The position numbers were made by a program, and so were the translations under genes. A stretch of 53,817 bases of DNA, filler included, from Sphacelaria rigidula (taxonomy: Eukaryota), in the NCBI GenBank assembly GCA_964200075.2. It is 5 parts of 5 records of this genome, joined end to end, with 100 filler letters (N's around TTAATTAATTAA, not from the genome) between each part and the next. Parts side by side here need not be neighbours in the genome. Positions count along the whole stretch, not along the records: positions 21,569 to 32,252 come from CAXNAA020006087.1; 4 more parts are not named here. One strand, written 5' to 3'. Shown piece by piece: positions 2,530 through 43,135 of the stretch. Position 1 is the first letter of the stretch. The number at the start of each line of letters is the position of its first letter. The notes below the pieces were generated by a model, which worked only from the letters and a program-made list of their open reading frames with translations, made no database searches and was not told the origin of the DNA.

Positions 2530-4950
2530 CTAGAGATCAGTCGGAGCGCTGCTGCTCTCGTCGGAGGATTGTGACAGAGCCATCCGAGCTAAGGGCTCAA
2601 AAGTACTGCCATGAGCGAAAGACTTCGATGGTGCCCCGAAAAAGCTCGACGTTCTCGATCGCATTGACGACTGTCGTTTACTCCAGTCCACACTTCCGGA
2701 AATCACACTGGACGGTCGGGACTCGGAACGAGAATTTCTATCCACGTTATCGACAACGGTGGGGCGTCGGGGTATCGAGTGCTGGTTCTCAGTGGCGTTC
2801 TCGACAACGCTTGGTCGTCGCCACACCCTTGTGCTCCGGTGCGACGGTGTTTCGGACGGCCGCTGAGGCGACGAGGGCTCGAACGTAGGCGAACCCGCAC
2901 CATTTTCCATCAGGTGCGCTGTTCGGCTCCATGCTACTCTGTTGTTGTTGTTGTCGTCGTCGTTGCACCCATCGTAGTCGACGGTGTCGGTGCGGTGCTT
3001 GTGGCACGTCTTTCTGCCACACACCGCTGCATCCGTGGACGTAGACTGTCGATTGCTCTTGGCCCACAAGTGCTCGTAAAACGTGGTCGCGATGCCGGGG
3101 GTCGATTTTTCACCTGCAGAGGCTGCACCGTCGCTTCTCGCTGCCCCGTTCGAGTAGTTCGCCTCTTGCGTGCTGTCCGTGTGCTTGGGCGTGTGCTCTT
3201 GTCCGTCGGATCTTCTAGTGAAGTCAGTCCGGGCATTTCGGTCGTTGTAATGGGAAACCAACAGCGTGGAACTATGCCCGATCTCATGGACGGATCTGGC
3301 GTTCGCTTCCGACACGGTCCGATGCCCAGAGCTACCACCGGAAGCCGGGGTAGCCGAATGTTGCTCCAAGTGTACGAACTTATCGGCCGCTCTTACTCTA
3401 CGATCACTAGCTGCATTCGGCCCTTGTATATCCCTCGAGATGGTCTCGGGAGCGCATAGTCGCTCCGTCAAAGCGGTGAGCTGTTGCCGGTCCATTGAAG
3501 TATTCTTTTGTTGGGTTATTGAAGAACTATTCTCTTGTCCAACAACATTCAGACTCCCTTCTGTCGCACTCGGCTCGGCCGCAGCCATGACCGCTTCCGG
3601 AGACAAGCACGAACAGGAAACCGGAGCAGAAGGCTTTCTGTGGGGGGGCGGGTAATGTAAGGGTTGTCTTGTATCATGAAGTCCCCCGTCGACACCACCA
3701 TCAGCTAGCCGTCGGTTGGTATCTATGCACTCGCTACCTTCTTCACAGAATGGGAGCACCCTCCAACCACGTGAGAAGGCATCGCCGACTACAAAAATGT
3801 GGTCTTGCAGAAGAAGCTCCTTCTGTTGCCCCAGGTATGGTGAGGGCTCCTGGATCTTCAGGCCAGGTTTCACCAACATTCTCCGACGTAGTTTAGCTTC
3901 AACAGCCGATTCGTGGTACTGTACGGGACCATTCCCAGGTTGTTCCTCCTCACGCACTTGGTGGTACCTCGGAGAACTGCCGCTATGATCTGGCTCGCTC
4001 GACATCACCAGCTCCTGTGCACCACTCTCACCGCTGACGCCATACCCTTCGCCGTCAGCTGAAGCCTTCGTACACATTATATTTCCAATATCTTCGCCGT
4101 TACCCTCCGGGTCGTCCTTTTTAGGTCGGTAGCACAAAAAAGGGCGAGAGAATAAAGCAGATATCAAAATGTCAAGGTGTAACTATTTCGCCAACAAAGC
4201 ACACACAATCAGTTACATCGGCCTCATGCTCCTGCACCGCACTTTCCCCCCCTATTCTTGCTACAAGCATGTACGCCTTCGCCCCCCTGTCCCCCCGCCT
4301 CACCATCATCCATGGACCAAATTGAAGGTGTAACCTTTGAAGCGGTGCTATCGGCTTCAACCAATCACATACCTCCGAGGTATTCCTGGCAGCGGCGGCA
4401 GTTAGGAAGGGAAAGACATCCCCTCTCCTTCGTCGTGGGGAAGGGGGTCTGGTGCAAGTCGTCTCTATAGGTTCACCGCCGATGCTACTTACCTCACTAT
4501 AGCCATGGGTGGGAAGTGTTTCACCAAAATATCCACCAGTATCACCATCAGTATCGCTTTCAGCGCCGTCAATACCGATTTTCGCCAGGGAATAGATGTT
4601 ATTGCCCAAGGGAGGTAGCATGGTGCCCCGACTCATAGCTGTCTGAAAAATTCTGTTGGTGCTTCCGTTTCGATACGGGGGCTTGAGAGGGCGTGGCTCC
4701 TCAACACCGCCATGTAGTCGCCGTCGAACGTACTTCTTCATTGCGCTGAGTGATTCAGGCGATGCTGTCCATCTGCGCCTTCGCCCAGCGAAACGTAATG
4801 TAGTGTCATCACAGTGCCTTGAGCGCTGTACGGAGTGACATCGAGAGTTGAGGTGTAACCCCCTCCCGTCACCCCCGTCGCCGTTGTCGACCGCTGATGT
4901 TCTCTCCTGGACGTTCTTCAGTTCATGTGTTTGCTGCTGTTGCTGCTGCT

Positions 4951-4981
<31 letters not shown>

Positions 4982-4998
4982 TTGTTGTTGCAGCAACA

Positions 4999-5046
<48 letters not shown>

Positions 5047-8000
5047 TCCTGCTCGCAGAAATAGTGGCAGCGGCCTCTGCCATGATTCTCTTCGACCACA
5101 ACTCCCGAACGGGGGCACCCTGGAACCGAAGACCCGCTGCTGCCTCGCTTTTGCCTTCTTCGGGAACACCACCCTCCTCTCCGAGTAAAATGTCTTGTCG
5201 GCTGGTAGTCTCCATCCCCTGTCCTGCGTCGCCCTTACAAGGCCAGTGCCGCGGCGGAGTACGTGCAGTCATCGCTTCCTCAAGATTTTCTCGCGCATAT
5301 GGATTCATTAACGACGCAGATGGAGAGACCATTGTCGCTCCTTCGCCGCGAAGACTCACGCCGTTATCGAAGAATTTAGTATGAGCGGAGAAGCGAAGCG
5401 AGGACCAAAGCGTCGTGATGATCGGAGGTACTTCGGGTGGTGGCGGCATCTGCAGGAGTGCTTGGTGCAAGGGTAGACGCTGATGGTGGGGGCCAGTCGT
5501 ATTCACATAACTAAACCTGATGCTGTGAGGGGTGGCGGCAGTCAGCAGGGTCTGCGGAAAGCTGGCGAGCTCGGCGTCAATCTCTCGAGCAACCGCGTCC
5601 GATGTTGGCATCGTTAAGGGGCGAGAAGCGGGCGAGGAATCGGCCGCTTTGAGACAAATCGCGAAGGAGTCGCCAAGCGCCACCTGTCTTGCGAAACAGG
5701 ACGAGTGTCGGGTACAACCGCACGTGGGCCGGGATGAACTTCAGCTAGACGTTCGGTACTTGAGAAAATACGGAGAAATGGGGACAATGGCGTAGGCTCG
5801 GCTGCGTGAAGCTGCTCTATCAACTCGACGAGCGTACGCATATGCACATATGTTTATGATACATGAATCGAACGAGAGCCGTTCAGCACCACATCGAGTG
5901 GGGTGGGATTCTGCATGAGCCACCCGCTATATTCTGACGGTTGCGTTTTCAGCCGGTGAGTTGAATCGTGAAGCGTACACCATCGTGCATGCATTTGCCT
6001 GCTGGACTCCAAACTTAGACATGAAGGTCGAAACTCGTGGGGTCGCAGGTGCGGGGTTGGTGGGGGATATTCCAAGGCGTCCTCTCGAGTTGCAGCCCCA
6101 GACCAGCAAGACGCCGGTACTTGTCACGGCCGCCGACGTTTCTGCCCCTGCGGCCACCTTTACGACGTCCTGGGTTTCGAGACAAATCGACAGAGGGCAG
6201 CACCCGAGAATGATGGAGCAGTGTCGTGCGATGTCTATTGCGGGACAAAGTAGATCTGTAACGCGCTATTTGACCCATTAGCAGTCCACATCCACTGCTC
6301 AACGTCCCCGTGGCTCAACGATAAACCGAGCGATTTGTCCTCTTCCCGCACAGTATCCTTCGTATTCCGGTCGTTTCAAACGACGGACCTCGTTTCATTC
6401 ACTTGGCATTGGCGCTTCTATCTCCGCCCCCAGAAATATATTAAAAAAAAAACATTTTTGAATGAGTTACGGTTGCGGTCCACCTGCTGCACTTCACACT
6501 CCACCTCAGTGTGTCACCACGGTACCCGAAACGACCAAAAATATTGCGATGACCCAAGAGCAGCAAAATCACATCTACAGTGTCGGGGGGGGCTATGCCT
6601 GCGGCAAACTGCATGGAACAAGCCGCAGTAGTGGTTCTCGAGGGTGCACATTTTCCACATACCTATGAAACGGAAAGTTCAACGGCCATGAAAAACAGGT
6701 TGTGCAACTTCACGGGGGGGGGGAAGACATAAAATGTGCAAGGAGTCATGCAAACGCGGCGTTTTCGGGAGAAAAAAAGTAGCCCTGTTTTTTCATCGCC
6801 TAGAACGGGCCTTAGGAGTCTAGCTGAGATCAGTAGATGATTGAATCTTTTCTGTGGACCAAAATGAACGTATGCCTGAAAAAAATGTTGAAGCGAGAAT
6901 TGGGGGTCACGATTATCTTTTTACATGGTGTTCAGCCAAGGCCTTCACGCGGGCGGGATGCTTCCGGCTGGTGTAGTCTCCTAGCCCCAGTTGCCCCCAT
7001 CGATTGCCACCCCATGCCCACACCAGCCTGTAACGTAACCCATGAGTGGTGGGTCATCAATAAAGATCAGCGCAAAGGAATCCAAGGATTCAGGCGGAGG
7101 TGGGACAAAGCGACCGTTGATGCGCGTGCAGGCGTTCACGCGGGAAAAGCTACCTGCTTGCTCGCGGTGGAACTACCATGTCGAGTAATGCCGACGAAAT
7201 GACACGAGCTGAACCACGGGCGGTCACGCTACGCACAATCTGGAGTGCCGACATGAGGGTTCTAGACAGAGGCTTTCCTATTGAAAGAAACACCAAAATC
7301 CGACTCACAACGAAGCAGGCTGTGCGAAAATCGTGGTGAGTCGTAGCTGCTTTGATACACGGCGCGATGCGCCGGTGCCTCTGCTTCAAGCACCGCGCAT
7401 ACCTGTGCCTTTCGCGCGATCATACTCACGAACGTACCTACTACTCGGTTGTGCTTATATCGGACGTGAGCTGGAGGTCGTTACTTACAAGCGATTCCTT
7501 CAACTACCTGTTCGGCGCCAACGCGAGCGTGTGAAAGCCGCCGCACGCCACCCGCGTCCCTTCCGCACGCGCCCCAGAACCCCCCCATTCCACGCGCCCG
7601 AAGCCGTCGCCACCTTGCCCGGCCCCGCCCACCCAGCGGTCTCCACCGTAACATTGCCTGATATTTGTCGTCGACGACCGTCCGTCCACATTGTTTCTAG
7701 GCGTTCCCGAACTCCGACGTCCACGAAAACGCGCGTCACAGCCGCCTCGGCTGCCACCGCCGCAAACACAAAACACATGACGCTCGGCGGCGTATCTGGT
7801 ACGACGAGCACAACCTTGACGAATATTGCATCTAGTGTCTTCGGTGCAGCTTTCCATGGCGGTACATGTCACGCGACGCGAAGATTGCAGATCCTCGTCT
7901 TTTCCGGGCAGCCGTTGCCTGCTGTTCTCGCTGCGTAAAGCCCGTTTTGCTTCTGCTGCGTCTGCACCCAGAGGGGTGCCAAGGGTCGCGGCCGACATTC

Positions 8001-10421
8001 CACAACAAAATTCCCCATGAAAGAAGTGATTGTGGGCCGGACTGGCGCTTCTGCAGCGTATCCTGCGTGAGCTCCGGCCTACCTCCGGGTCGCGCCTGCG
8101 GCTGCGTGTTGCAGAGCTACCTTTTCTGCCTGAGTGTTGCTTTAGCGGTGGTGATTGTAAACTTCGGCCCAACTGGCCGCTCAGGTTACAGCCGGAGGTG
8201 TATACCGCGCCGAATTTGTCCACGACCGCGGAGTGACGAGCCCCGCAGGATATCTGCGCTTTGGGTCGGACCGGTCCGGACCAGATCGGGGAAGAGGAGA
8301 AGAAGTCGGGGTAGAATATAGTAAATATCGTTGTACCTCCATGTTTGCAAAATAAATTTCACAGCGTTTATAGCTGTATTTGGGTTACGCGGTGTTCTGG
8401 TGGGACGTACATATTTTCGTTCGCATTCATTGAAATTCGGGTACATCGCCCGCTGCGGTTCGGTACATATTACGACGCACATGCGAAGTATCGTCTGATG
8501 TCGGCGGACGTTTCACAGGAACTGGAAGGAGCAGCGTGAGGGCGCCACTATCAACTCCCGCAGAGCTCTGTGGAGCCAGGAAAACATTCTCGCCTACGGC
8601 GCGAACGGCCGCTGCCAGGTGCGTTCTTCATGACCACTGCATGACGTACATGACTGCTGTGGGATCGATTACCGGGGTTATGGCACCGAACGGGGAGCTA
8701 TACCTTATTTTTGGAAAGGGGATTCTGGGCCTTCACTCCATAAGGTCTTGAAAAACTGTAGTATATGATACAGCTGTTGCCGATCATGTGACACACTTTG
8801 CTCAGATACGACGGATGTGTGAGCGTAAACAAAGAACATACGATCGAAATACGACACAATGACATTTTATACTGAAATCTGTACATTTTCCCGTCGGAAC
8901 TGCAAAGTTACTATGATCGTTTGATAATTTCTCCTTTTTATCTTCCGTACTCATGCACTGATTCACGCTCCTGCGCCGGTGACATGGCGATCCTATGGTA
9001 CCGCGTGACAAATATATAACGGTAAAGTGAAAAATCATGATGTTCTGATAATACAAATAGCGCTTATTTCAGTATTATTTTCGAAAGCGGCGTTGTGTGA
9101 CAACGCAGATCCTGCTGGACTGCTGAGTGATGCTACGGTAGGGATCGCACTTTTTCAGCGGAAAAGTTTTCCGGGGCTGCTCGGGGTGTTGGACGGGTCA
9201 TTTTTTGTGAATCGGCATCATTCTACTTGAAAAAGACCGAAAATGATACCGTAGAATGATGCCGATTCACGAAAAGGTCCCTGCGTGTGAATACCATGTT
9301 TCTGGAAGTCCGGCTCCCGGAGATTTGGATTACGCAGTAAGCCCCATATATTTGTGCGCCTACAAGGAGAGCCCCAGAAGCAAAAAGCGCAACCCCTACC
9401 GTAGCATTGCTCTGCTCTACTACATGATAGGCGACAGTACCATACACACCACTCCCTACGAGAGATCCTGACCGCCGCTCGCCGACAACCAGGTGTACGG
9501 TACTATAATGTGAGTACAACTGAATGCACCCACCCATCAAACGTTTAAAGCCGCCCACTCTCATCACTGTCATGTCCCACAAAAGTGGGCGCCATTGTCT
9601 GCGTCGTCTGCTGGCACCGTGCTTACTATCTACTGTCTGCGGTCCGGAGCACCTGTCTAGCCGTTGCTTGAGCGTTTTTTGCTTGTCCGTCTACAGCTGC
9701 CGCTACTGCCTCTGAATTTTCAAATACTTACCGTACAGCGTTGACCATTTTTGTGAAATTTTCAACATTTAGCGTTTTCGTGATACTAATTATTATCCAT
9801 AAACGAGAGGTGACTAATAATCCTGTGGATATGGACCATATACGACATTTTACATGCGCATGTGAGAGATCATTTGAACCTCGAGATTGCCATATGCTAT
9901 GACCGACAGGCGAATCTTCAGCCATAGGATCAGATATCGTGTATTCTTTTATGGAGTGAAGGCCTAGGCGATTCTGGAAGAACCGTCCAAACTAACTGCT
10001 CATCTTACGACCAAAACTTGAGGATATGTTTGCCGTCATTGCTGCGCATTTATTCACAATAGCAAGAGAAAATGTCGATAGTAACATGACGATTACTACC
10101 ATGATCAATAACACTCGATATCATGGCGGCATTGTTGCCATGTACATACACATAATATATCATATTTTTCTCCATTGCTGTGTACAAATTACCATCACAG
10201 TTACAGGACTGATTGCCGTGAAGGTTAATTTCTCAAACATTTTCAAAAACCCTGACGGACGTTCCCACGGAAGCAAGCAAGACGTGTACACGCAAGGCCT
10301 CTCGTGCTCCCGCGTGTGTATGAGCCGTTACCTGAACCACGGGTACCCGCGTCAGGGACATGACATTCTCCGGACGCAGTACCTTCCTGCCCTCTGGCGA
10401 TCTCCTCCCGAGCGACAGTAA
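2530..10421 (-). CDS. RCC1-repeat protein with a long low-complexity, polyQ-containing C-terminus (spliced; 5' end probably beyond the contig end)
   Basis: Proposed exons (minus): 10332-10421 (tentative), 7508-8253, 6925-7027, 5999-6169, 4373 or 4493-5683, 2530-4116. Splicing restores RCC1 blades with compatible phases: VPVVQ|ISCGARHSAVVDKFGAVYTSGCNLSGQLG; VACGGFHTLALAPNR|LVWAWGGNRWGQLGLGD...KALAEHH|DVVKVAAGAETSAAVTSTGVLLVWGCNSRGRLG...GVQQ|VALGDSFAICL. Two alternative phase-0 donors exist for the penultimate exon. Confidence 0.75.
4932..5044 (-). repeat. Coding CAG/CAA microsatellite (polyglutamine, interrupted by LLL)
   Basis: (CTG/TTG)n on the + strand; reads as Q-run-LLL-Q-run in ORF 4172..5683. 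Confidence 0.95.
9131..9406. mobile_element. Small foldback/MITE in an RCC1 intron, containing a fragment of the 44684-44885 MITE family
   Basis: Outer IR tgctacggtagggatcgcacttttt / aaaaagcgcaacccctaccgtagca; inner IR gtgaatcggcatcattctac / gtagaatgatgccgattcac. Confidence 0.65.
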
Positions 10422-10684: not shown

Positions 10685-10784
10685 NNNNNNNNNNNNNNNN
10701 NNNNNNNNNNNNNNNNNNNNNNNNNNNNTTAATTAATTAANNNNNNNNNNNNNNNNNNNNNNNNNNNNNNNNNNNNNNNNNNNN
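10685..10784. other. Artificial contig-joining spacer
   Basis: 44 N + TTAATTAATTAA + 44 N; identical to the three other spacers. Confidence 0.97.
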
Positions 10785-21468: not shown

Positions 21469-21568
21469 NNNNNNNNNNNNNNNNNNNNNNNNNNNNNNNN
21501 NNNNNNNNNNNNTTAATTAATTAANNNNNNNNNNNNNNNNNNNNNNNNNNNNNNNNNNNNNNNNNNNN
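21469..21568. other. Artificial contig-joining spacer
   Basis: 44 N + TTAATTAATTAA + 44 N. Confidence 0.97.
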
Positions 21569-21861
21569 GTTATATGGTGGCTTGAGAATATTATGGGTGT
21601 GGTAGGGGGGGGGGGGGGTAATTCCACGGGAAAAGGGTCCATAGATGTGTCAGATAGCCCAACACACTCGCGGTGCGCTTGCATTTGGGAAAAAACGGTG
21701 TCAAGCAGCAAAAATTAAACGTCATTTTTCGGTGACGAGCGCGTTCGAACAACCGCTGCTGCTTTCAACGACGATTTGAACTCGAATTTTGTCGAAGAAA
21801 TGACCCAAAATATCCCCTCGTCCCCTCCCCCTATCGTAGGATGACTCACCATACGAATTCC

Positions 21862-21923
21862 GGTATCGCCAGGGCAGCTCGGCAACCCGCAATTACTCTA
21901 CTTGCATTACGACAAGCTCAGTG
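21862..21923 (+). pseudogene. Antisense LRR exon copy A1 (internal deletion; start approximate)
   Basis: SPGQLGN---PQLLYLHYDKLSG|gtgagt. Confidence 0.7.
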
Positions 21924-22128
21924 GTGAGTCTCTCGGACAAATTTTTTGCGCATACAATATTGCACGAAAAGCGCGCACTCTCAAACAGGTTCCACAGGTT
22001 CCATGCATGAATCCCGCCGGCGGGGTAGGCGCGTAGGCCATCCAATGTTTTCGAAAGGTGGGTGGGACTTAATTGGGACGCCTATTGCCACAAAGGTCTT
22101 AACCTGTTTGTCTACCCGTTTGCTACGG

Positions 22129-22200
22129 GTCCTGTCCCCCTGGACCTAGGGAACCTCGGGGCCCTTAAGCGACAGGCACTTTGAAATAACGAATCGAGCG
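22129..22200 (+). pseudogene. Antisense LRR exon copy A2 (72 nt; acceptor mutated; one stop)
   Basis: GPVPLDLGNLGALKRQAL*NNESSG|gt; acceptor reads CGG. Confidence 0.85.
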
Positions 22201-22349
22201 GTCTTCTCGACCACAATTTCCGAAACAGTATTCGATACCATATAATATCGGTCTTGCTAGCGCATCGGAACGTATGCCATCACATGCTCACGAAGGGTAA
22301 ACATTCGACAGTTAGTATTACTTCTTCGCCGCTGTGATGCTTTTTCCTG

Positions 22350-22422
22350 GATCCTTTCCTGAGACGCCGGGAGCTCTCAGCGAGTTGTGGACGCATTGAC
22401 TCTTGCAACACGCAGCGTTCAG
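22350..22422 (+). pseudogene. Antisense LRR exon copy A3 (73 nt; inverted paralog of S5)
   Basis: GSFPETPGALSELWTH*L/CNTQRSG|gtaact; acceptor reads CTG; both flanks align to the S5 flanks. Confidence 0.8.
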
Positions 22423-22578
22423 GTAACTTTCGTTTCAGGTGGAGGTTTGGATATCGACTTTTGTCGGCTTCGGGAGCTTGTATCCAACGTACGCACATGT
22501 CCTAGAGAAACAAGATCGTGGTTAGGATTCATCTTGAAATTTGCGCGGGAACCATATCATGTGTACGTAGTACCTCAC

Positions 22579-22650
22579 CGCTTAGCCGGTTTCCCTCAAG
22601 GTAGAGGTACTCCAGTGCTGTGAGGTTTCCAAACTCCGGCGGGATGGAAC
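22579..22650 (-). CDS. Sense LRR exon S8 (72 nt)
   Basis: GSIPPEFGNLTALEYLYLEGNRLS; tgcag| ... |gtgagg. Confidence 0.9.
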
Positions 22651-25600
22651 CTGCAGTAGCGGAAGGAGCATGTGCGATTTCAGGGGGGAAATGATCATGA
22701 TGTCTCCCTCGGTTTCTACAACATTCTTCTCACCGGCACATAGGTGAGTAGGCGGTTACGTTTTCTATAAGCGTGCAATAGGATCGGTTGATGTCACGGA
22801 TTGTTTAACTTTCATGGTGGCTCTGCTCTGCTTGTGCAGGGACCATCCCCAAGGAATTGCAAGCCTTCATTGCGCTCGAGGAGTTTCATCGTTTTGACAA
22901 CGAGCTCACTGGTGACAGGCATGGACCAACAGTGTTTTTTTTCAATTCTGAAATAACGTGTGTCCCGTCCATGCGTTGGCGGGACGCGATCTAAGGAGAT
23001 CGGAAAGCTGTTCCTCGATTTGCACTCACCGGTGAGCTTATTACTCCACAACGACAGCTCTTCCAAGGCACCAAGACTTCCAAGCTCCGCGGGAATAGAA
23101 CCTGAATGTGGCGTAGGCGAGTAGGTAATAATCATGTTTCAAAAATGGATGGTGGGATTCAATGAGGGCGCTTATTTCTACTTAGGTATCAAACCTGTCT
23201 CCCGTTAGCTACAAGTACCATCCCTCCGGAGCTAGGGAAGCTCGGGGCTCTCGAGAGACTGGCGCTTCTGAAAACGAGTTGATCGGTGAGTCTTCTCAAT
23301 TATCTTTGCCAAATAATCGTTGATTTCCATGAAAAATCCGTCCTAGCAACGCGTAGGCGAGCAGGCCACCTGATGTTCCAGACGGTCGGGTGAGACATAC
23401 GTTCTGGGTGTGAGGGAGAAACATCAACTATCTATTCCTCGCTGACACCATGTATATCTCGTTCGCTGTAGGTCCCCATCCCGCCTGAGCTGGGAAACCT
23501 CACAGCACCGGACGGCCTGGAGTTTAGAACAAGTTCAGCGGTGAGCCACTACGAATCCGTGTTACGGTTTCTCACGCAGTGTTCAGGGTACATCCCAATG
23601 ACGGTCTTATTTTCTCTTCAAAAGGTTCTCTGCCCACGCGTAAGTGGGGCACGTGTTTTCAGAAAGCTACGGACAGGACTTCCCACGCTTTGAATTTTGA
23701 ATAACAACCGTAGTCTAAGCACCTCACCAGTAAGCTGGTTATCGCTAAGCCCAAGCGTCCTAAGCTCACTGAGACCTCCCAGCTCCTCGGGGATGACTCC
23801 TGAGAAAGCAGTAAGTATAGCAGCCAAGCATCGGACAGGAGACAACTGCTTGGAAGCTCCTACACAGTGACTTCCTCTGCGTAGGTGGAACACAAGCTCC
23901 AGCAGTCAGCGATAATCAATATCTCAATGTCTGCCAAGAGAAAAACTACCTGAAAGCTGGTTATCGCTGAGCCAAAGCGTCCTCAGCTCGCTGAGAGCCG
24001 CCAGCGCCTCAGGAATGGATCCTGCAAAGAGGATCACAACGGAGATACAAATGAAATGATAACTTTTGAAATAATGACGATATTCGAGTATGCGATGGCC
24101 TACTTGCCTACGCGTAGGCACGTGGGCGAGTAGGCCATCAGATGTTCTAGAAACGTAACCACGACACGACCGATTCCTCTGCTATGACTTGCATATCTGC
24201 AGAACACACCCCGCCGTAGCTAGGCAATCTCAGCGCCTTGGAGCGCCTCAACCCCAGCAAGAACAAGTGAATGCGTGAGTACAAAAGATCAGACAATGAA
24301 TTCATATTCTTGCCACTTCAGTAAAAAAACGACCATTAATCTCGCCGACATCTAGGCAGGAAACGTGTTTTACAGAAACCTACGGACAGCACTTTTCAAG
24401 TCACCACAATCGTCGTCTGAGCATCTCACCGGTAAGCTTGTTGCTGCTGAGCCCAAGCGTCCTCAGCTCACTGAGACCTCCCAACTCCTCGGGGATGGGT
24501 CCTGCGAAAGCAGCACAACGGCCAGAAATCCGGTACGAGACAACCGCTTGCAAGCTTCGAGAACATGTCCTACCCAGTGTTATTATTTTTCGATAATATG
24601 GAGGCGGTGTTTTGGCAACTTAGGCGTGAAGAGAATCCGCACCCCGTGTCAGATGATGCCGAAACTCGGAGAATGTTTAGATTGGTTATCATAGGAAGGT
24701 GTCACAGTCACAACTGCGGCAGGGAAAGTCGCTCATGGTCCGGTCTGCATCGATACGGTGGATAATCACCGTGCGCTGATTTTTGTTTTTTCAACACCCT
24801 GCTGTCTGATGACGATTATAGTGGGTACAGTGTCAGTTGACCACGCTGACTGTGCATGGATCCTGCCGGCCTCATCATCAATCTTCGCCCAGTTATGGAT
24901 TAACGCTCGAAGAAACCCAGCAAACAAGCATCGTTTATGATCCGCTATATATGAGGGTTGGGAGGCGAACGTTTCCGCTCCAAAACGGTCGACTTTCGAA
25001 GATTAAACTCCTGTCGTGCGACCAGTGGGTAGCGCGCCGGGCCCTTGCCGGCTTACCCGGTACTGGAGGCGACATCCCGGTACAGACGGTCCCACCACTA
25101 CCGTCACGGCCGTGCAAACAGGCCGGCAGCCGGAGTGGGCGTTGCACTGGTATTCTTCTAGCATTATCGACTTCGATTATCTCCGCATTGGCTTTCCACG
25201 TGAATATTTCGGTGGTTGCCTCACTTCCACTTCGGCCATATTTTGGCGACAAGCCACGGTCTCACTGCCCAACTTTATATGGGAAATCGCTTGCAATCTA
25301 TCCTGTTACAAAACTCGTAAGTGATGCAGCTTCCTCCACATACGCAATCCGCCCGTGAGGCGAGCTTTTGATGCTGGAAGTGCACACCCCTCTTTCCTTG
25401 ATGATGTCCAGTCTTGGGCTCAGGCAATTGAAACCTCGGAATATGACAGTATCTACTAGAAGGTACATATTCTGCGGCCATCGTGCCTCCATATTATCGA
25501 AAAGGAATAGCACTGCTACCCATCTATGCCGAGGCAGAACACGAATTGAAATTAAACGAGCCTACGGGCAGGATTTTCTAGAATTTGAAACACGACCGTA

Positions 25601-27977
25601 GGCTTCGCATCTCACCGATGAGCTTGTTGTTGCTGAGCGTGAGCGTCCTCAGCTCGCTGAGACCTCCCAGGGTCGCGGGGATGGGTCCTGTGAAAGTAGC
25701 ACAGTGGCCGATCATTGGATATGACACAATCGCTCAAAAGCTCCTCAAGCACGACTACTCACCCGCGCGTGGGTAGAACATGTTTTCCAGAGAAAATAAT
25801 GTCGTAATCAGTTTGATTTCTCACCGGTAAGCTTGTTAAAGCTGAGCAAAAGCTCCCTCAGTTCGCTTAGATATCCCAGTGCCTCGGGGATGGGTCCTTC
25901 GTAAGTAGCATACGGAGACAAACAGGAAATGAGCAACGGATGAGAAGAGCGTACGATCAAAGGTCAAAGGTTCCAAAACACGTATCTCGTCGACGCGTAG
26001 GTGAGTAGGCTAGTAGGCTAGTAGGCTAAGTCAGTTCCCAGAAGCGGAGCAGGACACAACCAGTTTCCTTCGAAATTCCAACAACAGTATGCTTCAGTTT
26101 GACCTGCATGCCTGCAGTACGCCGCAATTGGAATATTTCGGTGCTTGGAGTGCCTCTACCTCAGCTATGACAACTTTAATGGTGAGTGCAGACGAGTAAT
26201 AAATGTTAGGTAGAAAAAACAGGCGGGATGGGACGCAAGCTCTGGAAGCCGGCCAGGATCATTACCTATACGTCCTCTCACGAGAAATTTACCTGTGAGC
26301 TGGTTGTTGTTGAGCCGCAGCTCCTTCAGCTGACTAAGAGCAATCAGCGCCTCAGGGATGGGGCCTGCAAATGCATCACGTCGGTACAAGATGAAAATGA
26401 TGACGTTGACATAACAAGCCCTTCGAGGCCATGTGGTCGCCTACTCCCCTACGTACGCAGGGTGTACGAGGCCACTTCATGTTCCAGAAGCGTAGGCGGG
26501 ACACTATCGATTAAATCCTCCGAATATCAACAACCATATGCGCTGCTTTGACTTGCATGTCTGCAGGGCACATCTGGCTCCAGCAAGGCAACCTCAGCGC
26601 CCTCGAGCTCCTCGACCGCAGAGCTAACGGTTTGATTGGAGTTCGAACAGCAAAATAATAATTTCGACTTTTGTATAAATGAACAAGCATTACAGTAGCA
26701 TGCCAATGGGCTACGAGCTGGGCCAGCCGAGAGTAATTGTGAATCTCGCTCAGGCGACGCACAGCGCGATATTAGGAGTTGGACGCTGAACTTTTGACAG
26801 CAGATTTTCACGATTGAAATGCAGAAGATCGCGTGAGCAGCAAAATGCAAAAAAGCAGTTATGGGCACTTGAAATTTCAGCAAAAAGAAGATAATGTTGT
26901 TAGTCCAGAAAAAAATCGAGAATCTGCAGTTGCTCAGGTGACGTATCAGTGCTTTGGGTGCAGAATGTCTACCTGAAATTTCAGCTCAAGAGTCGTCGAA
27001 TTGGGTCGTGCGTTCAACACTTTCCGTGACGCCGCTGCACCCCTATAAATCAAGTGATGGGAGACTCCAATTATGGAGATCATGAGTTCGAATTCCGACA
27101 GATTCTCTTTTTTTTTCGTCCGTACTTAAGGTTATACATTATATGCAGTACATTTTTTTTCATTTCTTTCTTCATCCAGCGGCGGTGCCGTGTGTCACCA
27201 GGTTGGTCTACACTTCAAAGTGATATGCTTACATCGGGTTCATTCGGGAAACTGGGAAAGCTGTGGTGTGAGCAACTTTCGGCCACTTCTGAGCTGGCCT
27301 AGCTCGTAGGAGTATCTCGAATGATCTTTGAAACGACAATGTCCTTATCCATATTCTTCCGTTGTAGCTCCTAGTTTTAGAACCCCCTCAATGAGAAAGA
27401 TCTGGGCCTAAATGTGCAACCGCTAACGTGGCATGTCTCATCAGAGCCCCCCGAAGTATGCGTTCCCCGAGGTCTTATTTGTATCAGAGAGTTAGTGTGA
27501 GTACAGATGGCGTGTTTAAGGAGAAGGCTACGAGACGAGATTCAAACGACTCGATAAGCTTTGGCGACTGCACCAGTCTCGCACACACCGCGTGCTTGTA
27601 CTGCGGCGACTCAACATACGAGGCGTATTCAGGCGTCGACCACTTGCAGAACGCGGGAACGTACCAAGAAGGCGACGTCGAGGCCAGTTGGAAAACTTCC
27701 AATATCATGAAATAATCGCTTTCCACCAACGAATTCCTGGGGAAGATCACGCAGATAGCAAGGGAGCAGCACGTGATGCCCATACGGTAGGTCGTAAAAT
27801 ACCTTTGAGGTTGTTGTTGCTCAGATCTAGTTCAACCACGCAGCCTTGATTATTGACTTCTACTCCGTAGGAATCCGACAGGTCTTCATTCGTGTCCCAG
27901 TTGTCGTTGCAACACCATTTAGCTCCATCGGTCGATCCATACAGGGTACGCAGTACATCACGACCCGTCGAGGCCAT
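22579..27977 (-). CDS. LRR protein with N-terminal LRR cap and eight 72-nt single-repeat exons; probably the 5' part of a brown-algal LRR-ROCO-type gene (3' part off-contig)
   Basis: Exon 1 27803-27977 plus phase-1 exons 26293-26364, 25825-25896, 25616-25687, 24430-24501, 23950-24021, 23728-23799, 23030-23101 and 22579-22650. All are AG/GT bounded, stop-free and match GxIPxxLxxLxxLxxLxLxxNxLx. No ROC/COR domain is seen in the window, so the ROCO assignment is inferred. Confidence 0.9.
22840..22911 (+). pseudogene. Antisense LRR exon copy A4 (72 nt; open frame; AG/GT intact)
   Basis: gtgcag|GTIPKELQAFIALEEFHRFDNELTG|gtgaca. Confidence 0.9.
23030..23101 (-). CDS. Sense LRR exon S7 (72 nt)
   Basis: GSIPAELGSLGALEELSLWSNKLT; ttcag| ... 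|gtgagt. Confidence 0.9.
23215..23285 (+). pseudogene. Antisense LRR exon copy A5 (71 nt; acceptor CAA)
   Basis: GTIPPELGKLGALERLALL/NELIG|gtgagt; 1-nt deletion. Confidence 0.9.
23472..23540 (+). pseudogene. Antisense LRR exon copy A6 (69 nt; frameshifted; inverted paralog of S8)
   Basis: ctgtag|GP/IPPELGNLTAPDGLEF/NKFSG|gtgagc. Confidence 0.85.
23728..23799 (-). CDS. Sense LRR exon S6 (72 nt)
   Basis: GVIPEELGGLSELRTLGLSDNQLT; ctcag| ... |gtgagg. Confidence 0.9.
23950..24021 (-). CDS. Sense LRR exon S5 (72 nt)
   Basis: GSIPEALAALSELRTLWLSDNQLS; tgcag| ... |gtagtt. Confidence 0.9.
24094..24139. other. Best-preserved palindromic cassette-junction site (putative recombination site)
   Basis: Perfect 14-bp palindrome GCCTACGCGTAGGC (24106-24119) within gatggcctacttgcctacg...cgtgggcgagtaggccatc; degenerate copies occur between nearly all LRR modules. 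Function is inferred. Confidence 0.7.
24203..24274 (+). pseudogene. Antisense LRR exon copy A7 (72 nt; two stops)
   Basis: ctgcag|xHTPP*LGNLSALERLNPSKNK*M|gtgagt. Confidence 0.9.
24430..24501 (-). CDS. Sense LRR exon S4 (72 nt)
   Basis: GPIPEELGGLSELRTLGLSSNKLT; cgcag| ... |gtgaga. Confidence 0.9.
24575..25515. mobile_element. 941-bp non-autonomous DNA transposon in the S3-S4 intron
   Basis: 31-bp TIRs (28/31 identical) starting CAGTG; 5-bp direct repeat CTACC at 24570-24574 and 25516-25520. Confidence 0.85.
25616..25687 (-). CDS. Sense LRR exon S3 (72 nt)
   Basis: GPIPATLGGLSELRTLTLSNNKLI; cacag| ... |gtgaga. Confidence 0.9.
25825..25896 (-). CDS. Sense LRR exon S2 (72 nt)
   Basis: GPIPEALGYLSELRELLLSFNKLT; cgaag| ... 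|gtgaga. Confidence 0.85.
26118..26181 (+). pseudogene. Antisense LRR exon copy A8 (64 nt; deletions)
   Basis: ctgcag|TPQLEYFG/LECLYLSYDNFNG|gtgagt. Confidence 0.75.
26293..26364 (-). CDS. Sense LRR exon S1 (72 nt)
   Basis: GPIPEALIALSQLKELRLNNNQLT; tgcag| ... |gtaaat. Confidence 0.9.
26567..26638 (+). pseudogene. Antisense LRR exon copy A9 (72 nt; donor lost)
   Basis: ctgcag|GHIWLQQGNLSALELLDRRANGLIG|gagttc. Confidence 0.85.
27803..27977 (-). CDS. LRR gene exon 1 (LRR N-cap plus first repeat)
   Basis: MASTGRDVLRTLYGSTDGAKWCCNDNWDTNEDLSDSYGVEVNNQGCVVELDLSNNNLKG; phase-1 donor AAG|gtattt. Confidence 0.9.
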
Positions 27978-29411
27978 TGTGGAGGAACCTGTGGGGGTGT
28001 AGAGAGGGTTGGAAGCATGCGGGCATGCGCCGAGATATTTGTTGGGGCAGCAAACGCAAGAGCAACGTCAAACGAAGGGGGTTTGTTCGTATTTCGGTCA
28101 GTGACAACGATATCTTCCGGGAAATCTGCACAAAATCATGGTCGGATATTTCGTGGAACGTTTCCACTGCAAGTTTCCATGCATAGGAATATTCCGCGGG
28201 AAATACATGTGACCTTCGGGGGACTGGCTTGAGGTTTGTTCCAGTCGTTGTTGCCTAGAGTTATCAACCCCCTGTCAGGTTACTTCTCTTGTTCTCCATC
28301 TTCATGCCGACATTTCTGGGCCATAGGCCCTAGCTATGATGAAAGATGAGTTGTCGAGATCATCATCGATTGTCGAACACGCTGGCGATTTATCGGCAGA
28401 CAGTGCGGATTGGTCATCCCTGCAGCGATTATTAGAGTCAAGGATCTCGTTGGTGCAGAGGGAGGTAGCGCCTCTACTGTACAGGAAGAAAAGCTGAGTT
28501 GACCCTTTGCTGAAGATCGTTAACGCATTGGAGAAACAGCGATCAGGACGTATCCAAGGCGTCGGCTGCGCGAAGTCCTTCGCACCCACGGCGCGCCAGT
28601 GGTTCGTGGGTGCGGAAGGGGTTTCATCCTTGAGCATGTTGTCATATATTATCGACGAAGATCTGGAGTATTATCCAAGCTCAGGCGGGAGATAGGTGGG
28701 GTGGTTGCCTGTGTATGTTTTTCAGCAAATTCTTCAAGTTCGATCAGCAACTGGGTGAGCGGAGTGATTGGGCATTGTACGTGCGGATTGAAGACCCGCC
28801 ATTACTGAGGTTTCAAAGAAGAAGCCTCGGAGCAGCAGTAATCTGATGGGTTTCATGCTGCTAATGTCTTGTGCGGCCGCGCACTTGGTGATATGTTTGG
28901 ATGCTGTAGGTCCTGTACTATAGAGGCTGGTCAGCGGTACATGATGGTAGTAGTGCGCGGTGCTTGTTCATTCCCAAAGCTTATCGAAGCAAGGTGGTGC
29001 ACAGCACGCTTTGATGTGCATTTGCTGGATGCGATTCGCGCGTTTCCCACTTGTGCTGAACGTCATATGGATATGCACCATGCACTTGCCACCAGACTAA
29101 TTCAGATTTATCGGAAAAAACAAATTCTGCGTGCAATGCAGTTATCCCGGCATCAAGCAGTTATTCCGGCGGGGGTAGGTCCTGAACGGTACCAGTCTGT
29201 ACTGTAGAGTGATTGACGGCCCTTGGTACGTGTGCTCATGTCCTGTTTTGGACAGAGCTGTGAACCGAAGTGCTGTTCGAGATCCGGAGCGCTGTTCGAG
29301 ATGCATCTGCCGTTTCCCGACCCACCTGTTATGACTGATGAGTATGCAGTAGTATATACAGAAAAAATGTTGGATACCGCGTTTCCTCGTCAGGCTGAGT
29401 CGTGAGAACAA

Positions 29412-29759
29412 GTGTGTGTGTGTGTGCTGTCGTCCCATCTATTCTGGACGCCGTTCTACACCTTTCGGCACATGTGGGCGCACCAGCCGAAGTCACGCAG
29501 GAGAAAGGCCAACACAGGAGTTTTTTTTTTTTTTTTAGTTCTTCACCTTCCTTATGCGATGCTTGCCTTTATAGTTCATCTGTAGAGGGGTACAGCAGGC
29601 CCTTCCCCTCGTCAACCGTCAAGTCAACTTTCTTATACCCACGACATAGTCGCTCTCCACTGTTGGGCATGGTGTGAACAAAATCCCAGATCGCTCCGAG
29701 ATTTGAACCCACGACCCAATCGTCAGAAGGTTTCGAGGTTACCAATTGAGCCACCGGGG
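29412..29759 (-). mobile_element. tRNA-derived SINE copy
   Basis: Colinear with 16953-17292; A/B boxes and (CA)n tail. Confidence 0.85.
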
Positions 29760-31897
29760 AGAGACATCATGACTCTGCGCGTGTGTCAAATATACCATTA
29801 TTTGCGGAGAAATTGCCTGTTCGCCATTGTGAGAGTACGTTGATGTCCATGTAAGGGCACTGCAATTCCGAATTTGTTTTTGTGAAGTTGCGGAGGTTGA
29901 AGACTTCAAGCGATATATCAATGTGTTGGTCATTCAATACTGCATGCTCCAGTCGAGCTTTTGCTGTGCCAGATCTGATTCTACTCTAGGATTCTCACCC
30001 AGATGATGGTAGCAGACACTACGCAAAATCAGGAGTGGTTGTTTGCTGAGGAAGCTAATTGTATGAATGAGAACCAAGTGATGCGCATGATGGCTGATAC
30101 TCTACACAACGTCGTTTCGTGTTCCCCTTGAGACTGAATTCCCATGAGAAACATGTGTAACTCAGGTGCAACCCTTAAGATGGGGGTACGTACACGTGGG
30201 GTGGTGGTTTTTGGACGGAGGGTGGCCGACGATCAAGCCAAACCTCGGACTGCACGACGCTCTCCCTTGCAATGAGTGAAGGAAGGAGGAGATGAAGCAT
30301 GTTCGTGCAGTAGCCCTTTTTCGCATCGTGTTGGCGGAGGAAGAGATGTAAGCGAAGAAATGGGGTGGTTAGGCTGTTGATGCGAGCTCGTTTGAGACGT
30401 TGGATCGCTGCTCTGACTGCCATCGTGAGAGATGGAACAGGTACAAGTAGGTTTCGCTGTGCTTGTTGTGATTTCTGACTTTCAATATTTTTTTACTGTG
30501 AGGCAATAACGAGTAGTTTGGCTCTGGGATCCTGTTATCATGAGCATCGCAGTGCGTGTCAGCTTATTTCGACGTGGTTTTCTCGCGAACGTTCAGGCGG
30601 ATCCATGTTCCAAAAAATCATGTTCCGAGACAGTGAGATGTAGAGCTTCGAAAGTGCCCATGTACTTGCACTGGTTCAACCCTCGACGCCTGTCTTGTTT
30701 ACGTTATGCAAGTTTGCGCGTGTTGGGCATGAAGAACTCACGCTGTTTATCAGGGGCAAAGTTTTCTTGTAGGGTGCTCACCAGCATGACGTACATTTGC
30801 CTGAGCCGACGTTCAAAACAGGCTGTGGTATTTGATGACACAATGAACACATGAAGGGCACATGGAAATCGCCCTGTTTTTCTTCTGAGGATTAGATTTT
30901 CGTGTTGAGAATGTTGATCGGAATCAGGGGATATGAATGAATCTTCAACTTGCGGAGAAGTGAGTCTGACATATTCTACCGTTTTTTCGTTCGTGCCTGC
31001 CTGTATTTTTTTTATTGTGGCGCCTGCGCTTACTGTGCGTCCTCGATACCCGTCATGAAACAGGGGGGGAATGAGCACTGGAATGAATTTTCCCACAAAA
31101 AGGAGCTGAAAGTTGGACCTTGATGTTCGAGCTCAGCATGTTGGCAATAGTATGATTGCAACAAGACGTGGCGTATCAATGAATTGTGCGAGCGCATACA
31201 TTTCCCGAGCAAGTGTGTTTACGCAGTAATCGTGCCCATCGGTCTACACTCTTCTCCTGGTCCTGCTTGATGCAGGGAATGGGGAGGGAACCTTCCTGAC
31301 GTACCCATGGCCACAAACACGAAATTGATTATGTTGGTTACTTCAAGAGCACAAGAACACACGCACTCACAGTGCTAACGACTCCATCTTTGGCAATTTT
31401 CATGGCTCACCTCCCACAAATAGGGGTGATTCGAAATGAATTCAAAGATTTTCGCGCGAAGCGCGATTATCGCCGAGCGTTTCAAAATAGGCACACTCGG
31501 CAAAACCTGAGGATCCATCTGAGGATCCATCTGAAATCAGGAGAACCATGACATGGGACATGCCCTGTTTCACTGTCCGTGCTGCAGCACAAACACACTC
31601 ACGCCCTCTCTCATGTGCTGTAGCTGTCATTGCGTTGTGTGTGGTGTGTTCAGACCTTTGCGAAGACAGTTTGGTCTCCGCTGGGGGGATGTTTCGAGTT
31701 GCCTTACCCTCACCGCGTTCGTCTTCAAGTAAGGAAAATAATTTTAGTTGGGACGCAGTGCCATCTACACACCGTTGAAACCTTGATGGTCTGTTGGCTG
31801 TTTCGTCTTCCGTCACTCGAGCAAGGCGCTTGCCATACCCATCGTGCTTCTCCTGTACACACGTGGCCATTGGGCTACTCTCAACCGTCTTTCCACA

Positions 31898-32125
31898 CCC
31901 TCTAGAGGCAAAAAAGGCTCTGGAAGCGTATAATCCCTCTGGAGGCTGAAAAGTAAACCCCTCCAGAGGGATTATACGGCCGCTAAAATAGAGGAAAAAC
32001 CAACCGAAGCCTCTCAGGATGGAGGTAGATGGAGCTCCCCTCTGCCCTAGAGGGGTTATTTGCACTTTGTAGGATCCAACACAAACGTATGAAATCCCTC
32101 TGGAGGTCACTAATCCCTCTAGAGG
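31898..32125. repeat. Cluster of CCCTCT(A/G)GAGG-like palindromic motifs
   Basis: About 6-7 copies (ccctctagagg, ccctctggagg, ccctccagagg) near the contig end; probably a transposon subterminal array. Confidence 0.6.
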
Positions 32126-32252
32126 TGTTCAACCCCTGGACCGCGAACAACGTAGTCCATGTGAACCATGCATAATTTTTCACGGTTAGGACAAATTAGA
32201 ATTCATACGAGTCGACTCCTCATGACGCGCAAGCAGTCATGCTGTATAAACC

Positions 32253-32352
32253 NNNNNNNNNNNNNNNNNNNNNNNNNNNNNNNNNNNNNNNNNNNNTTAA
32301 TTAATTAANNNNNNNNNNNNNNNNNNNNNNNNNNNNNNNNNNNNNNNNNNNN
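32253..32352. other. Artificial contig-joining spacer
   Basis: 44 N + TTAATTAATTAA + 44 N. Confidence 0.97.
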
Positions 32353-43035: not shown

Positions 43036-43135
43036 NNNNNNNNNNNNNNNNNNNNNNNNNNNNNNNNNNNNNNNNNNNNTTAATTAATTAANNNNNNNNN
43101 NNNNNNNNNNNNNNNNNNNNNNNNNNNNNNNNNNN
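43036..43135. other. Artificial contig-joining spacer
   Basis: 44 N + TTAATTAATTAA + 44 N. Confidence 0.97.

Follow-up and report, generated by a model that had tools for sequence, protein, structure and literature searches.

Introduction

In Ectocarpus, leucine-rich repeats (LRRs) are encoded in 72-nt 'type I' exons, one LRR each, with the register G..P..L.....L..L.L..N.L. (Zambounis et al., 2012, PMC3341825). The main text of that study describes the LRR domains as recombination hot spots and reports related LRR exons situated on the noncoding strand within introns, those of the LRR domain only, some of them with conserved splice sites and some inactivated; these exons were regarded as a possible reservoir, and the shuffling mechanism 'was not investigated in depth'. 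According to the main text of another study, the type I exon structure is confirmed in four brown algae, and it is noted there that reports of somatic recombinants or recombinases are lacking (PMC11378527). Here we analyzed a stretch of DNA of 53,817 bases from Sphacelaria rigidula (assembly GCA_964200075.2; the whole stretch is called the window below), in which 17 LRR-exon cassettes lie on both strands of one array. The array is probably a minus-strand gene for an LRR protein of the type I LRR exon kind with the plus-strand cassettes inside its introns, and two pairs of inverted cassettes within it proved to be a single inverted block.

Bacterial shufflons and Hin/Gin-type segments carry coding cassettes both ways, and it is their orientation that sets expression. 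Non-allelic recombination between inverted repeats in segmental duplications inverts a segment, with the breakpoints inside the repeats. The variable lymphocyte receptor (VLR) of the lamprey is assembled from flanking LRR cassettes (cited in PMC3341825).

With the type I LRR arrays, as presented in the main texts of PMC3341825 and PMC11378527, the Sphacelaria locus shares the 72-nt one-LRR exons, the register, the in-phase introns, the antisense intronic copies and the intragenic recombination, and all sequence-level defining features that we tested are found here. The architecture as such has already been described in Ectocarpus by Zambounis et al. (2012, PMC3341825). What is new compared with the published work is the reconstruction of a single event (duplication of three cassettes, flip of two cassettes, gain or loss of one cassette), the reciprocal survival of the minus-strand members, and the words found at the junctions.

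Materials and methods

The window consists of five pieces of about 10.7 kb, between which stand spacers of the form N44-TTAATTAATTAA-N44 (at 10685-10784, 21469-21568, 32253-32352 and 43036-43135), and no feature is readable across the spacers. The inverted cassettes lie within piece 3 (21569-32252). A cassette was defined as half-intron, exon and half-intron, and the array at 21848-26711 was split accordingly into 17 cassettes of about 235 nt each, U1-U17, every one of which carries one central LRR-exon-like segment; the 17 junction positions between cassettes were placed by eye. Four cassettes had been picked out by an earlier reading of the same DNA, made without database searches and referred to below as the sequence-only reading: U3 is its A3, U4 its 'S8', U8 its A6 and U10 its S5.

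Nine public runs, all of them available as contigs, contain the stretch or part of it, and contigs from four of them (X1, X3, X4 and X6) were compared with the window. None of the runs listed is recorded as RNA. X1 and X3 have the same organism label, and X4 is labelled 'algae metagenome' and belongs to a separate study. X6 is a probable RNA run; its RNA label is a guess, and we take it for RNA from its exon-shaped cover. Extents of homology were taken from local alignments, block-wise identity in 60-nt windows around alignment ends being too noisy for this purpose (shuffled maximum about 40/60). The literature comparison covers main texts; within these limits, neither 'palindrom' nor 'inverted' occurs in the main texts of PMC3341825 and PMC11378527, and a literature search found no paper on junction sequences.

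Results

Eight intact LRR exons on the minus strand

The DNA of the window is eukaryotic in structure, with short exons bounded by AG and GT. Eight LRR exons were found on the minus strand of the array, in U16 (26293-26364), U14 (25825-25896), U13 (25616-25687), U12 (24430-24501), U10 (23950-24021), U9 (23728-23799), U6 (23030-23101) and U4 (22579-22650). All eight are exactly 72 nt long, bounded by AG and GT (the acceptor of U14 reads AAG), open, and in the register G.IP..L..L..L..L.L..N.L. Upstream of them, exon 1 (27803-27977, minus strand) supplies a start codon and a segment resembling an LRR N-terminal cap, and ends one base into a Gly codon with GT next. Every exon, exon 1 included, ends after the first base of a Gly codon, which corresponds to phase 2 for the next exon in GFF notation, the phase given in PMC11378527. 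With this shared intron phase and the length of 72 nt, gaining, losing or skipping any exon keeps the frame. Because the minus-strand exons are intact and an in-phase start exon lies upstream of them, we place the gene on the minus strand, and the plus-strand cassettes are accordingly intronic.

An exon profile built from the minus-strand exons gave 59-85 bits on these exons and 6-33 bits on the plus-strand copies, and a search of the 53.8-kb window with this profile detected no copy outside 21895-26374. For exon 1, the top match in the protein atlas was a cluster named 'Leucine rich repeat N-terminal domain' (score 0.95), and the match to the Pfam family LRR_10 reached an E-value of 0.007 only, which is under the family cut-off. 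The exon-1 peptide had no protein relatives among five candidates. The sole metagenome-contig locus that it matched (L001) is unrelated, with 36% G+C and no match to the exon profile or to the profile of cassette heads described below. The ROC-COR GTPase tandem that follows the LRRs in ROCO (LRR-ROC-COR) genes is not visible here: no Pfam match to ROC-COR was obtained among the open reading frames (ORFs) of piece 3 that were scanned, and only about 1 kb of sequence separates the final minus-strand exon, that of U4, from the end of the piece at 21569.

The acceptor of U6 is just 10 nt from the junction at 23112, and the branch site and pyrimidine tract of this exon must fall in the reverse complement of the head of the neighbouring cassette (23102-23112 region). 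The bin of U6 is nevertheless covered in the probable RNA run X6.

One inverted two-cassette block

The sequence-only reading had reported that A3 (U3), over its whole length, matches S5 (U10) in reverse complement, and that A6 (U8) and 'S8' (U4) are similarly related. Both alignments were reproduced, and all of the acceptor-side, exon and donor-side strings quoted for them are present in the sequence. When about 360-400 nt of flank was included to either side, the local alignment of U3 and U10 stopped at 22257-22495 (+) versus 24117-23878 (-), with 167 identities in 242 columns (69%) and a unit-versus-unit score of 92 (shuffled units: mean 16.5, standard deviation 2.2, maximum 24 in 300 trials). 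In a self-BLAST of the piece, 22326-22495 was paired with 24045-23878 at 71.8% identity over 170 nt (E-value = 5e-18), and an inverted-repeat search returned arms of 77 nt at 81% and of 46 nt at 72%. For the second pair, the reverse complement of U4 (22710->22503) was aligned with 23412->23617 in U8 (148/216 columns, 68.5%; score 80). The two alignments bear out the statement that cassettes of the same subfamily occur on both strands. Since LRR codons are common to all cassettes, some similarity is expected either way, and chance similarity or an assembly artefact might be suspected. However, the homology runs through both half-introns, with the E-value and the excess over shuffled units just given, and the arrangement is reproduced by independently assembled contigs from three runs and two studies, which makes this explanation extremely improbable.

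The two pairs are not independent. U4/U8 and U3/U10 are adjacent and collinear, 22710->22503 and 22495->22259 matching 23412->23617 and 23878->24116, and together they are one inverted two-cassette block. The gap between the paired segments is 7 nt in the left copy and 260 nt in the right copy, the latter being one whole extra cassette, U9 (23618-23877), exactly at the inner junction. The nearest relative of U9 is U12 (score 167; 75.6% over 209 nt in self-BLAST). Both inverted alignments stop no more than about 7 nt from junctions (the cassette of U10 extends over about 23878-24117, and that of U4 over about 22503-22745), save in the 22503-22710 cassette, at whose head the match gives out about 35 nt before the junction at 22745, and no homology was found further into the next neighbours of the blocks (scores 18-22). 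The inverted homology thereby covers two cassettes and crosses the junction between them. The claim that homology ends at the 'cores' holds for the outer ends of the alignment, which are near junctions, but not for the inner junction, which is crossed, nor for direct duplications, which run across cores (23886-24257 versus 26229-26621 and 23696-24059 versus 25584-25932, self-BLAST).

The cassette to the left of each block, U2 in one case and U7 in the other, is a direct duplicate (22022-22209 versus 23110-23301, 139/198 columns), and the identities of the three pairs are alike (U4/U8 68.5%, U3/U10 69.0% and U2/U7 70.2%). The simplest history is that a three-cassette block was duplicated, two cassettes were flipped in one copy, and one cassette was gained or lost at the inner junction; an equivalent history is that a direct copy of one cassette and an inverted copy of two were placed together. 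Homology running across cores into neighbouring cassettes had been named beforehand as a sign of a larger ordinary inverted duplication, and the two-cassette block comes near to this; it is the direct orientation of U2 and U7 that favours a flip over a simple larger inverted duplication. The proposal that core-to-core units were inverted in the past is thus retained in that the flipped segment ends at mid-intron junctions, and amended in that one block of two cassettes was turned rather than single cassettes. Judging from the divergence of about 30% between the inverted copies, the flip is old.

Junctions between cassettes

The cores are cassette junctions and not a uniform site. ACGCGT, which had been proposed as their common centre, is present at only 4 of the 17 junctions (23349, 23636, 24110 and 25993), or at 8 of the 17 when the variants GCGCGT and ACGTACG are counted, so this part of the sequence-only reading is not upheld. 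The word occurs 4 times in the 3.9 kb of the array versus 5 times in the other 49 kb or so of the window. CGTAGG occurs 8 times in the array versus 0.33 per kb in the whole window, and CCTACG 4 times in the array. The alignment of U3 and U10 ends at ...GCG/TGCGTA... on both sides. Furthermore, many cassettes share a 'head' of about 50 nt after the junction, and a profile of eight heads recognises 10 places, all of which are heads; no 'tail' was matched by it. Directly after the junction at 25995, in the head of U15, there are three copies of TAGTAGGC-like short tandem units (26003-26028).

The junction of U10 and U11 (24094-24139), with ACGCGT at 24110-24115, is the sole strongly palindromic one. 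It is self-inverted over 46 nt at 78%, with 36-nt arms, and the RNA fold of 24063-24162 is far stronger than that of shuffled sequences (z = -6.36; none of 200 shuffles did as well). This palindrome exists because two homologous cassettes meet head to head. The other five of the six 100-nt junction windows fold no better than shuffles (z from -0.65 to +1.65); with only one of six beating shuffles, it is ruled out that every core is a palindrome or hairpin.

A dedicated recombinase might flip core-to-core cassettes in a programmed and site-specific manner, as in a shufflon, in the soma or in the germ line, and so vary the receptor. Cassettes on both strands, block ends at junctions, the roughly ten-fold enrichment of ACGCGT in the array, and the presence or absence of U9 exactly at a junction are all in line with such a system, and targeted somatic recombination was argued for by Zambounis et al. 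(2012, main text of PMC3341825). We nevertheless consider it quite unlikely at this locus, as ACGCGT marks only the minority of 4 of 17 junctions (8 of 17 with variants), the words of GCGTAGG type stand mostly in one orientation regardless of the strand of the cassette (CGTAGG 8 versus CCTACG 4), and only one of six junctions is palindromic. Additionally, seven of the nine plus-strand cassettes have decayed, which frequent flipping would prevent, the inverted copies have diverged by about 30%, and contigs of two genotypes present the same arrangement. None of 20 ORF translations (10 of them in piece 3, the 10.7 kb around the array) matches a Pfam recombinase family, a search that split genes would escape.

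Another possibility is that the cassettes are small mobile modules with short terminal inverted repeats, which insert at junctions either way and are silent in antisense orientation and a new in-frame exon in sense orientation. Scores of heads against reverse-complemented tails averaged 13.1, as compared with 13.2 for the direct comparison and 12.6 for shuffled controls, and 0 of 256 reached 26; with these scores at control level and the profile recognising heads only, terminal inverted repeats on every cassette are ruled out. For particular cassettes the picture is more favourable to mobile modules, a motif NTGTTYY(N)VRRAV facing outward near both ends of U12 (24365 + and 24555 -) and of U14 (25780 + and 25970 -); this motif was written post hoc from the heads and is treated as a lead only. 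U9 is flanked by a direct repeat of 10/12 (23638-23649 and 23879-23890), but this repeat is the word common to most junctions. The position of the U6 acceptor, a mere 10 nt from where the neighbouring block starts, would also suit an insertion, whereas the copying of multi-cassette blocks as a whole would not, and the initial observations given in the main text of PMC3341825 do not support transposable elements. Taken together, we regard mobile modules as unlikely.

Plus-strand copies and the direction of the flip

Of the nine plus-strand copies, seven are inactivated, by a missing AG or GT, by in-frame stops or by their length (67-73 nt); one looks intact and one is cut. The cut copy is U1 (21853-21925), which has an open frame and is truncated at its 5' side where it borders on a high-copy repeat. 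U2 (22022-22209) has no AG and contains in-frame stops, and its direct duplicate U7 (23110-23301) has a 71-nt exon part and a frameshift. U3 (22257-22495), a copy of the U10 type, has lost the acceptor AG (now TG) and contains an in-frame TGA and a 1-nt insertion. Similarly, U8 (23352-23638), a copy of the U4 type, is frameshifted in its exon part (23472-23541), U11 (24203-24274) has two in-frame stops, and U15 (26117-26183) is inactivated and shortened to about 67 nt. U17 (26567-26638) is degenerate, has lost the donor GT and was missed by the exon profile. The intact-looking copy is U5 (22840-22911), with AG, GT, 72 nt and an open frame; the depth of X6 in its bin (22694-22918) is 0.

A stretch of 37 nt of the expressed exon U4 (22611-22647) is 89% complementary to the U8 pseudo-exon (23476-23512), 828 nt away in the same pre-mRNA. 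Two short minus-strand introns were also folded, with z of -1.95 and +0.12 relative to shuffles, and an Rfam search of 21569-32252 gave no family at gathering score.

One might suppose that antisense cassettes are retained for a role at the RNA level, pairing with sense exons to steer skipping or giving small RNAs that regulate the family. The U4/U8 stretch and the strong hairpin at 24110 could be cited for this, together with the statement in the main text of PMC3341825 that reshuffled LRR exons are likely miRNA targets. Yet most inverted pairs are only about 70% complementary, the frameshifts, stops and lost splice sites of the plus-strand copies are what neutral decay would give, folding is not stronger than in shuffles for five of the six junction windows and for one of the two introns folded whole, and Rfam gave no family in 21569-32252, so a role of this kind is very unlikely.

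U3, U10 and U16 belong to one subfamily. In their non-exon parts, U3 and U10 are 66% identical in the head and 65% in the tail, and U10 and U16 are 55% and 60% identical, respectively. U10 and U16 are both on the minus strand, each of them head to head with a plus-strand cassette of one subfamily (U11 and U17, score 73), and the two-cassette blocks 23886-24257 and 26229-26621 align directly. Because the head-to-head arrangement is shared by U10 and U16, it predates the split of U3 and U10, and the left copy of the inverted block is thus the derived, flipped one. In the right copy, the minus-strand member U10 is intact and the plus-strand member U8 is frameshifted; in the left copy, the minus-strand member U4 is intact and covered by X6, and the plus-strand member U3 is broken. 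From this reciprocal fate it follows that, whichever copy flipped, a cassette of the noncoding strand became a working exon and hence was still intact at that time. This is one reconstructed case of the reservoir idea of Zambounis et al. (2012), a once silent cassette having been taken into use as an exon.

Expression and genotypes

Each of the eight minus-strand exons lies in a bin where X6 has a depth of 7.9-37.8 (10.6 for U16, 22.1 for U10 and 37.8 for U4), as against 0-0.3 in all five bins that hold only plus-strand cassettes between minus-strand exons. An X6 contig 1225 nt long matches 27802-28300, its next 155 nt lying elsewhere, which means that it leaves the genome at the predicted donor of exon 1, as expected of a spliced minus-strand mRNA.

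Over 21751-24604 and 25449-26766, the DNA-like runs X1, X3 and X4 all have contigs that run collinearly with the window. In 2.3 kb, X4 departs from the window at 14 letters and by a single gap of 9 nt, and it therefore represents a second genotype with the same order and orientation of cassettes. Among the 15 contig joints listed (27 more exist), there is no strand change, and all of them are skips in or between high-copy repeats. Over the array, 19 single-letter differences between X4 and the window were counted, of which one (25672) is in a minus-strand exon versus about 3 expected from exon length, numbers that are few.

Repeats and other features of the window

The intron between U12 and U13 contains an inserted repeat element of 941 bp (24575-25515), whose terminal inverted repeats measure 31 nt (90%) and which has CTACC at either flank. 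Its family is a high-copy one, the depth being 10^3 to 3x10^4 versus about 66 for single-copy parts (X1), and the 178-aa ORF of the element has no Pfam match. Very high-copy repeats also flank the array (21569-21847 and 26712-27420, depth up to 2x10^5). Several contigs of single-copy depth join a point near 21847 to 26709-26712, with a short side of 20-25 nt only. These joints might suggest that a single repeat copy encloses the entire array, but they are too weak to interpret, given sides of 20-25 nt and the recurrence of the same 26-nt word at 28-53 of the window beside unrelated sequence. In piece 1, two minus-strand ORFs have weak Pfam matches unrelated to the array, 4172-5740 to TFIIA alpha/beta (E-value = 3.7e-9) and 7504-8358 to RCC1 repeats (E-values from 6e-8 to 3e-10).

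Discussion

We think it probable that the array was shaped by ordinary germline recombination among its own cassettes, a judgement that applies jointly to this history and to the minus-strand gene with intronic plus-strand cassettes. The array would have grown by germline recombination or unequal exchange, through several tandem duplications of blocks of two and three cassettes. At least one event would then have turned a two-cassette block inside one copy of a duplicated three-cassette block, presumably when the heads of about 50 nt at the two ends of the segment, which face opposite ways, recombined or served in break repair. Plus-strand cassettes, lying in introns, would be spliced out and then decay, and a cassette that was still intact when flipped back would serve as a working exon.

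Several observations weigh against this history. The recombination step is one that we infer, and at about 70% identity the breakpoints can be placed only within about 10-40 nt of junctions. The ends of blocks fall at GCGTAGG-like words, and the homology of U2 and U7 starts at GGxGTAGGCG in both, their left neighbours being unrelated. In the array, NTGTTYY(N)VRRAV is present 10 times, against 0.23 per kb elsewhere; every copy faces away from its nearest junction, at a distance of 8-47 nt, and 6 of the 10 lie outside the sequences of origin of the motif, 3 of those in tails. This outward motif leaves room for a specific end structure, which the cassettes may have. Besides, X6 also contains pieces that are unspliced (21805-22607, depth 7.75; 25664-25814, depth 2), and therefore includes pre-mRNA or DNA, with U1-U3 covered by the former piece. 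X1 and X3 are identical to the window and may be the source sample, so that X4 is the sole independent one. Moreover, rare somatic rearrangements may be compatible with the data, as contigs drop rare variants.

The X6 piece at 21805-22607 extends from inside the last minus-strand exon across U3-U1, and it may represent a long last exon or 3' untranslated region (UTR), intron retention, or DNA. Were it genuine mRNA, the protein would stop about 16 codons past the last LRR, and U3-U1 would be in the 3' UTR.

The junctions, in which a word of GCGTAGG type stands between outward ATGTTYY..RRA motifs, could conceivably be the signal for a dedicated cassette-moving machinery, with flips, insertions and losses taking place there and perhaps in the soma too; we hold this to be improbable. 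For an active or programmed inversion system there is no evidence in these data, the events being old and the arrangement fixed between two genotypes.

With the shufflon and the Hin/Gin-type segments the locus has in common that cassettes occur in both orientations and that orientation decides expression. However, no uniform inverted crossover site is present here, no recombinase was seen among the 20 ORFs scanned, the off-strand cassettes are decayed, the arrangement is fixed between genotypes, and expression is achieved by splicing, not by fusion to a constant part. The likeness to the lamprey VLR is that LRR modules are stored beside or inside a receptor gene as a possible reservoir. In the lamprey system an incomplete germline gene is completed by copying in such modules, whereas the germline gene of Sphacelaria is already complete, with a start exon and eight spliceable exons whose cover in the probable RNA run fits ordinary splicing, the stored copies are intronic with splice sites of their own, and no sign of copy-choice assembly was seen. 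Compared with inversion by recombination between inverted repeats of segmental duplications, the repeats here are just the cassette ends of about 50 nt, the flipped unit is a pair of exon cassettes within one gene, and the flip exchanges the exon that is read.

The brown-algal LRR genes with one-repeat exons and wrong-strand spares were proposed in 2012 as a possible recombination-based immune repertoire (main text of PMC3341825). The present locus is a clean worked example of such a gene, in which a silent cassette facing the wrong way was recruited as a working exon, as the authors of that text guessed, and in which cassettes move as wholes, with the cuts in mid-intron. The junction words obtained from this locus can be used for genome-wide testing. 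If dedicated machinery did act at the junctions, it would be the missing mechanism of the LRR exon shuffling in which Zambounis et al. saw a possible basis of adaptive-like immunity.

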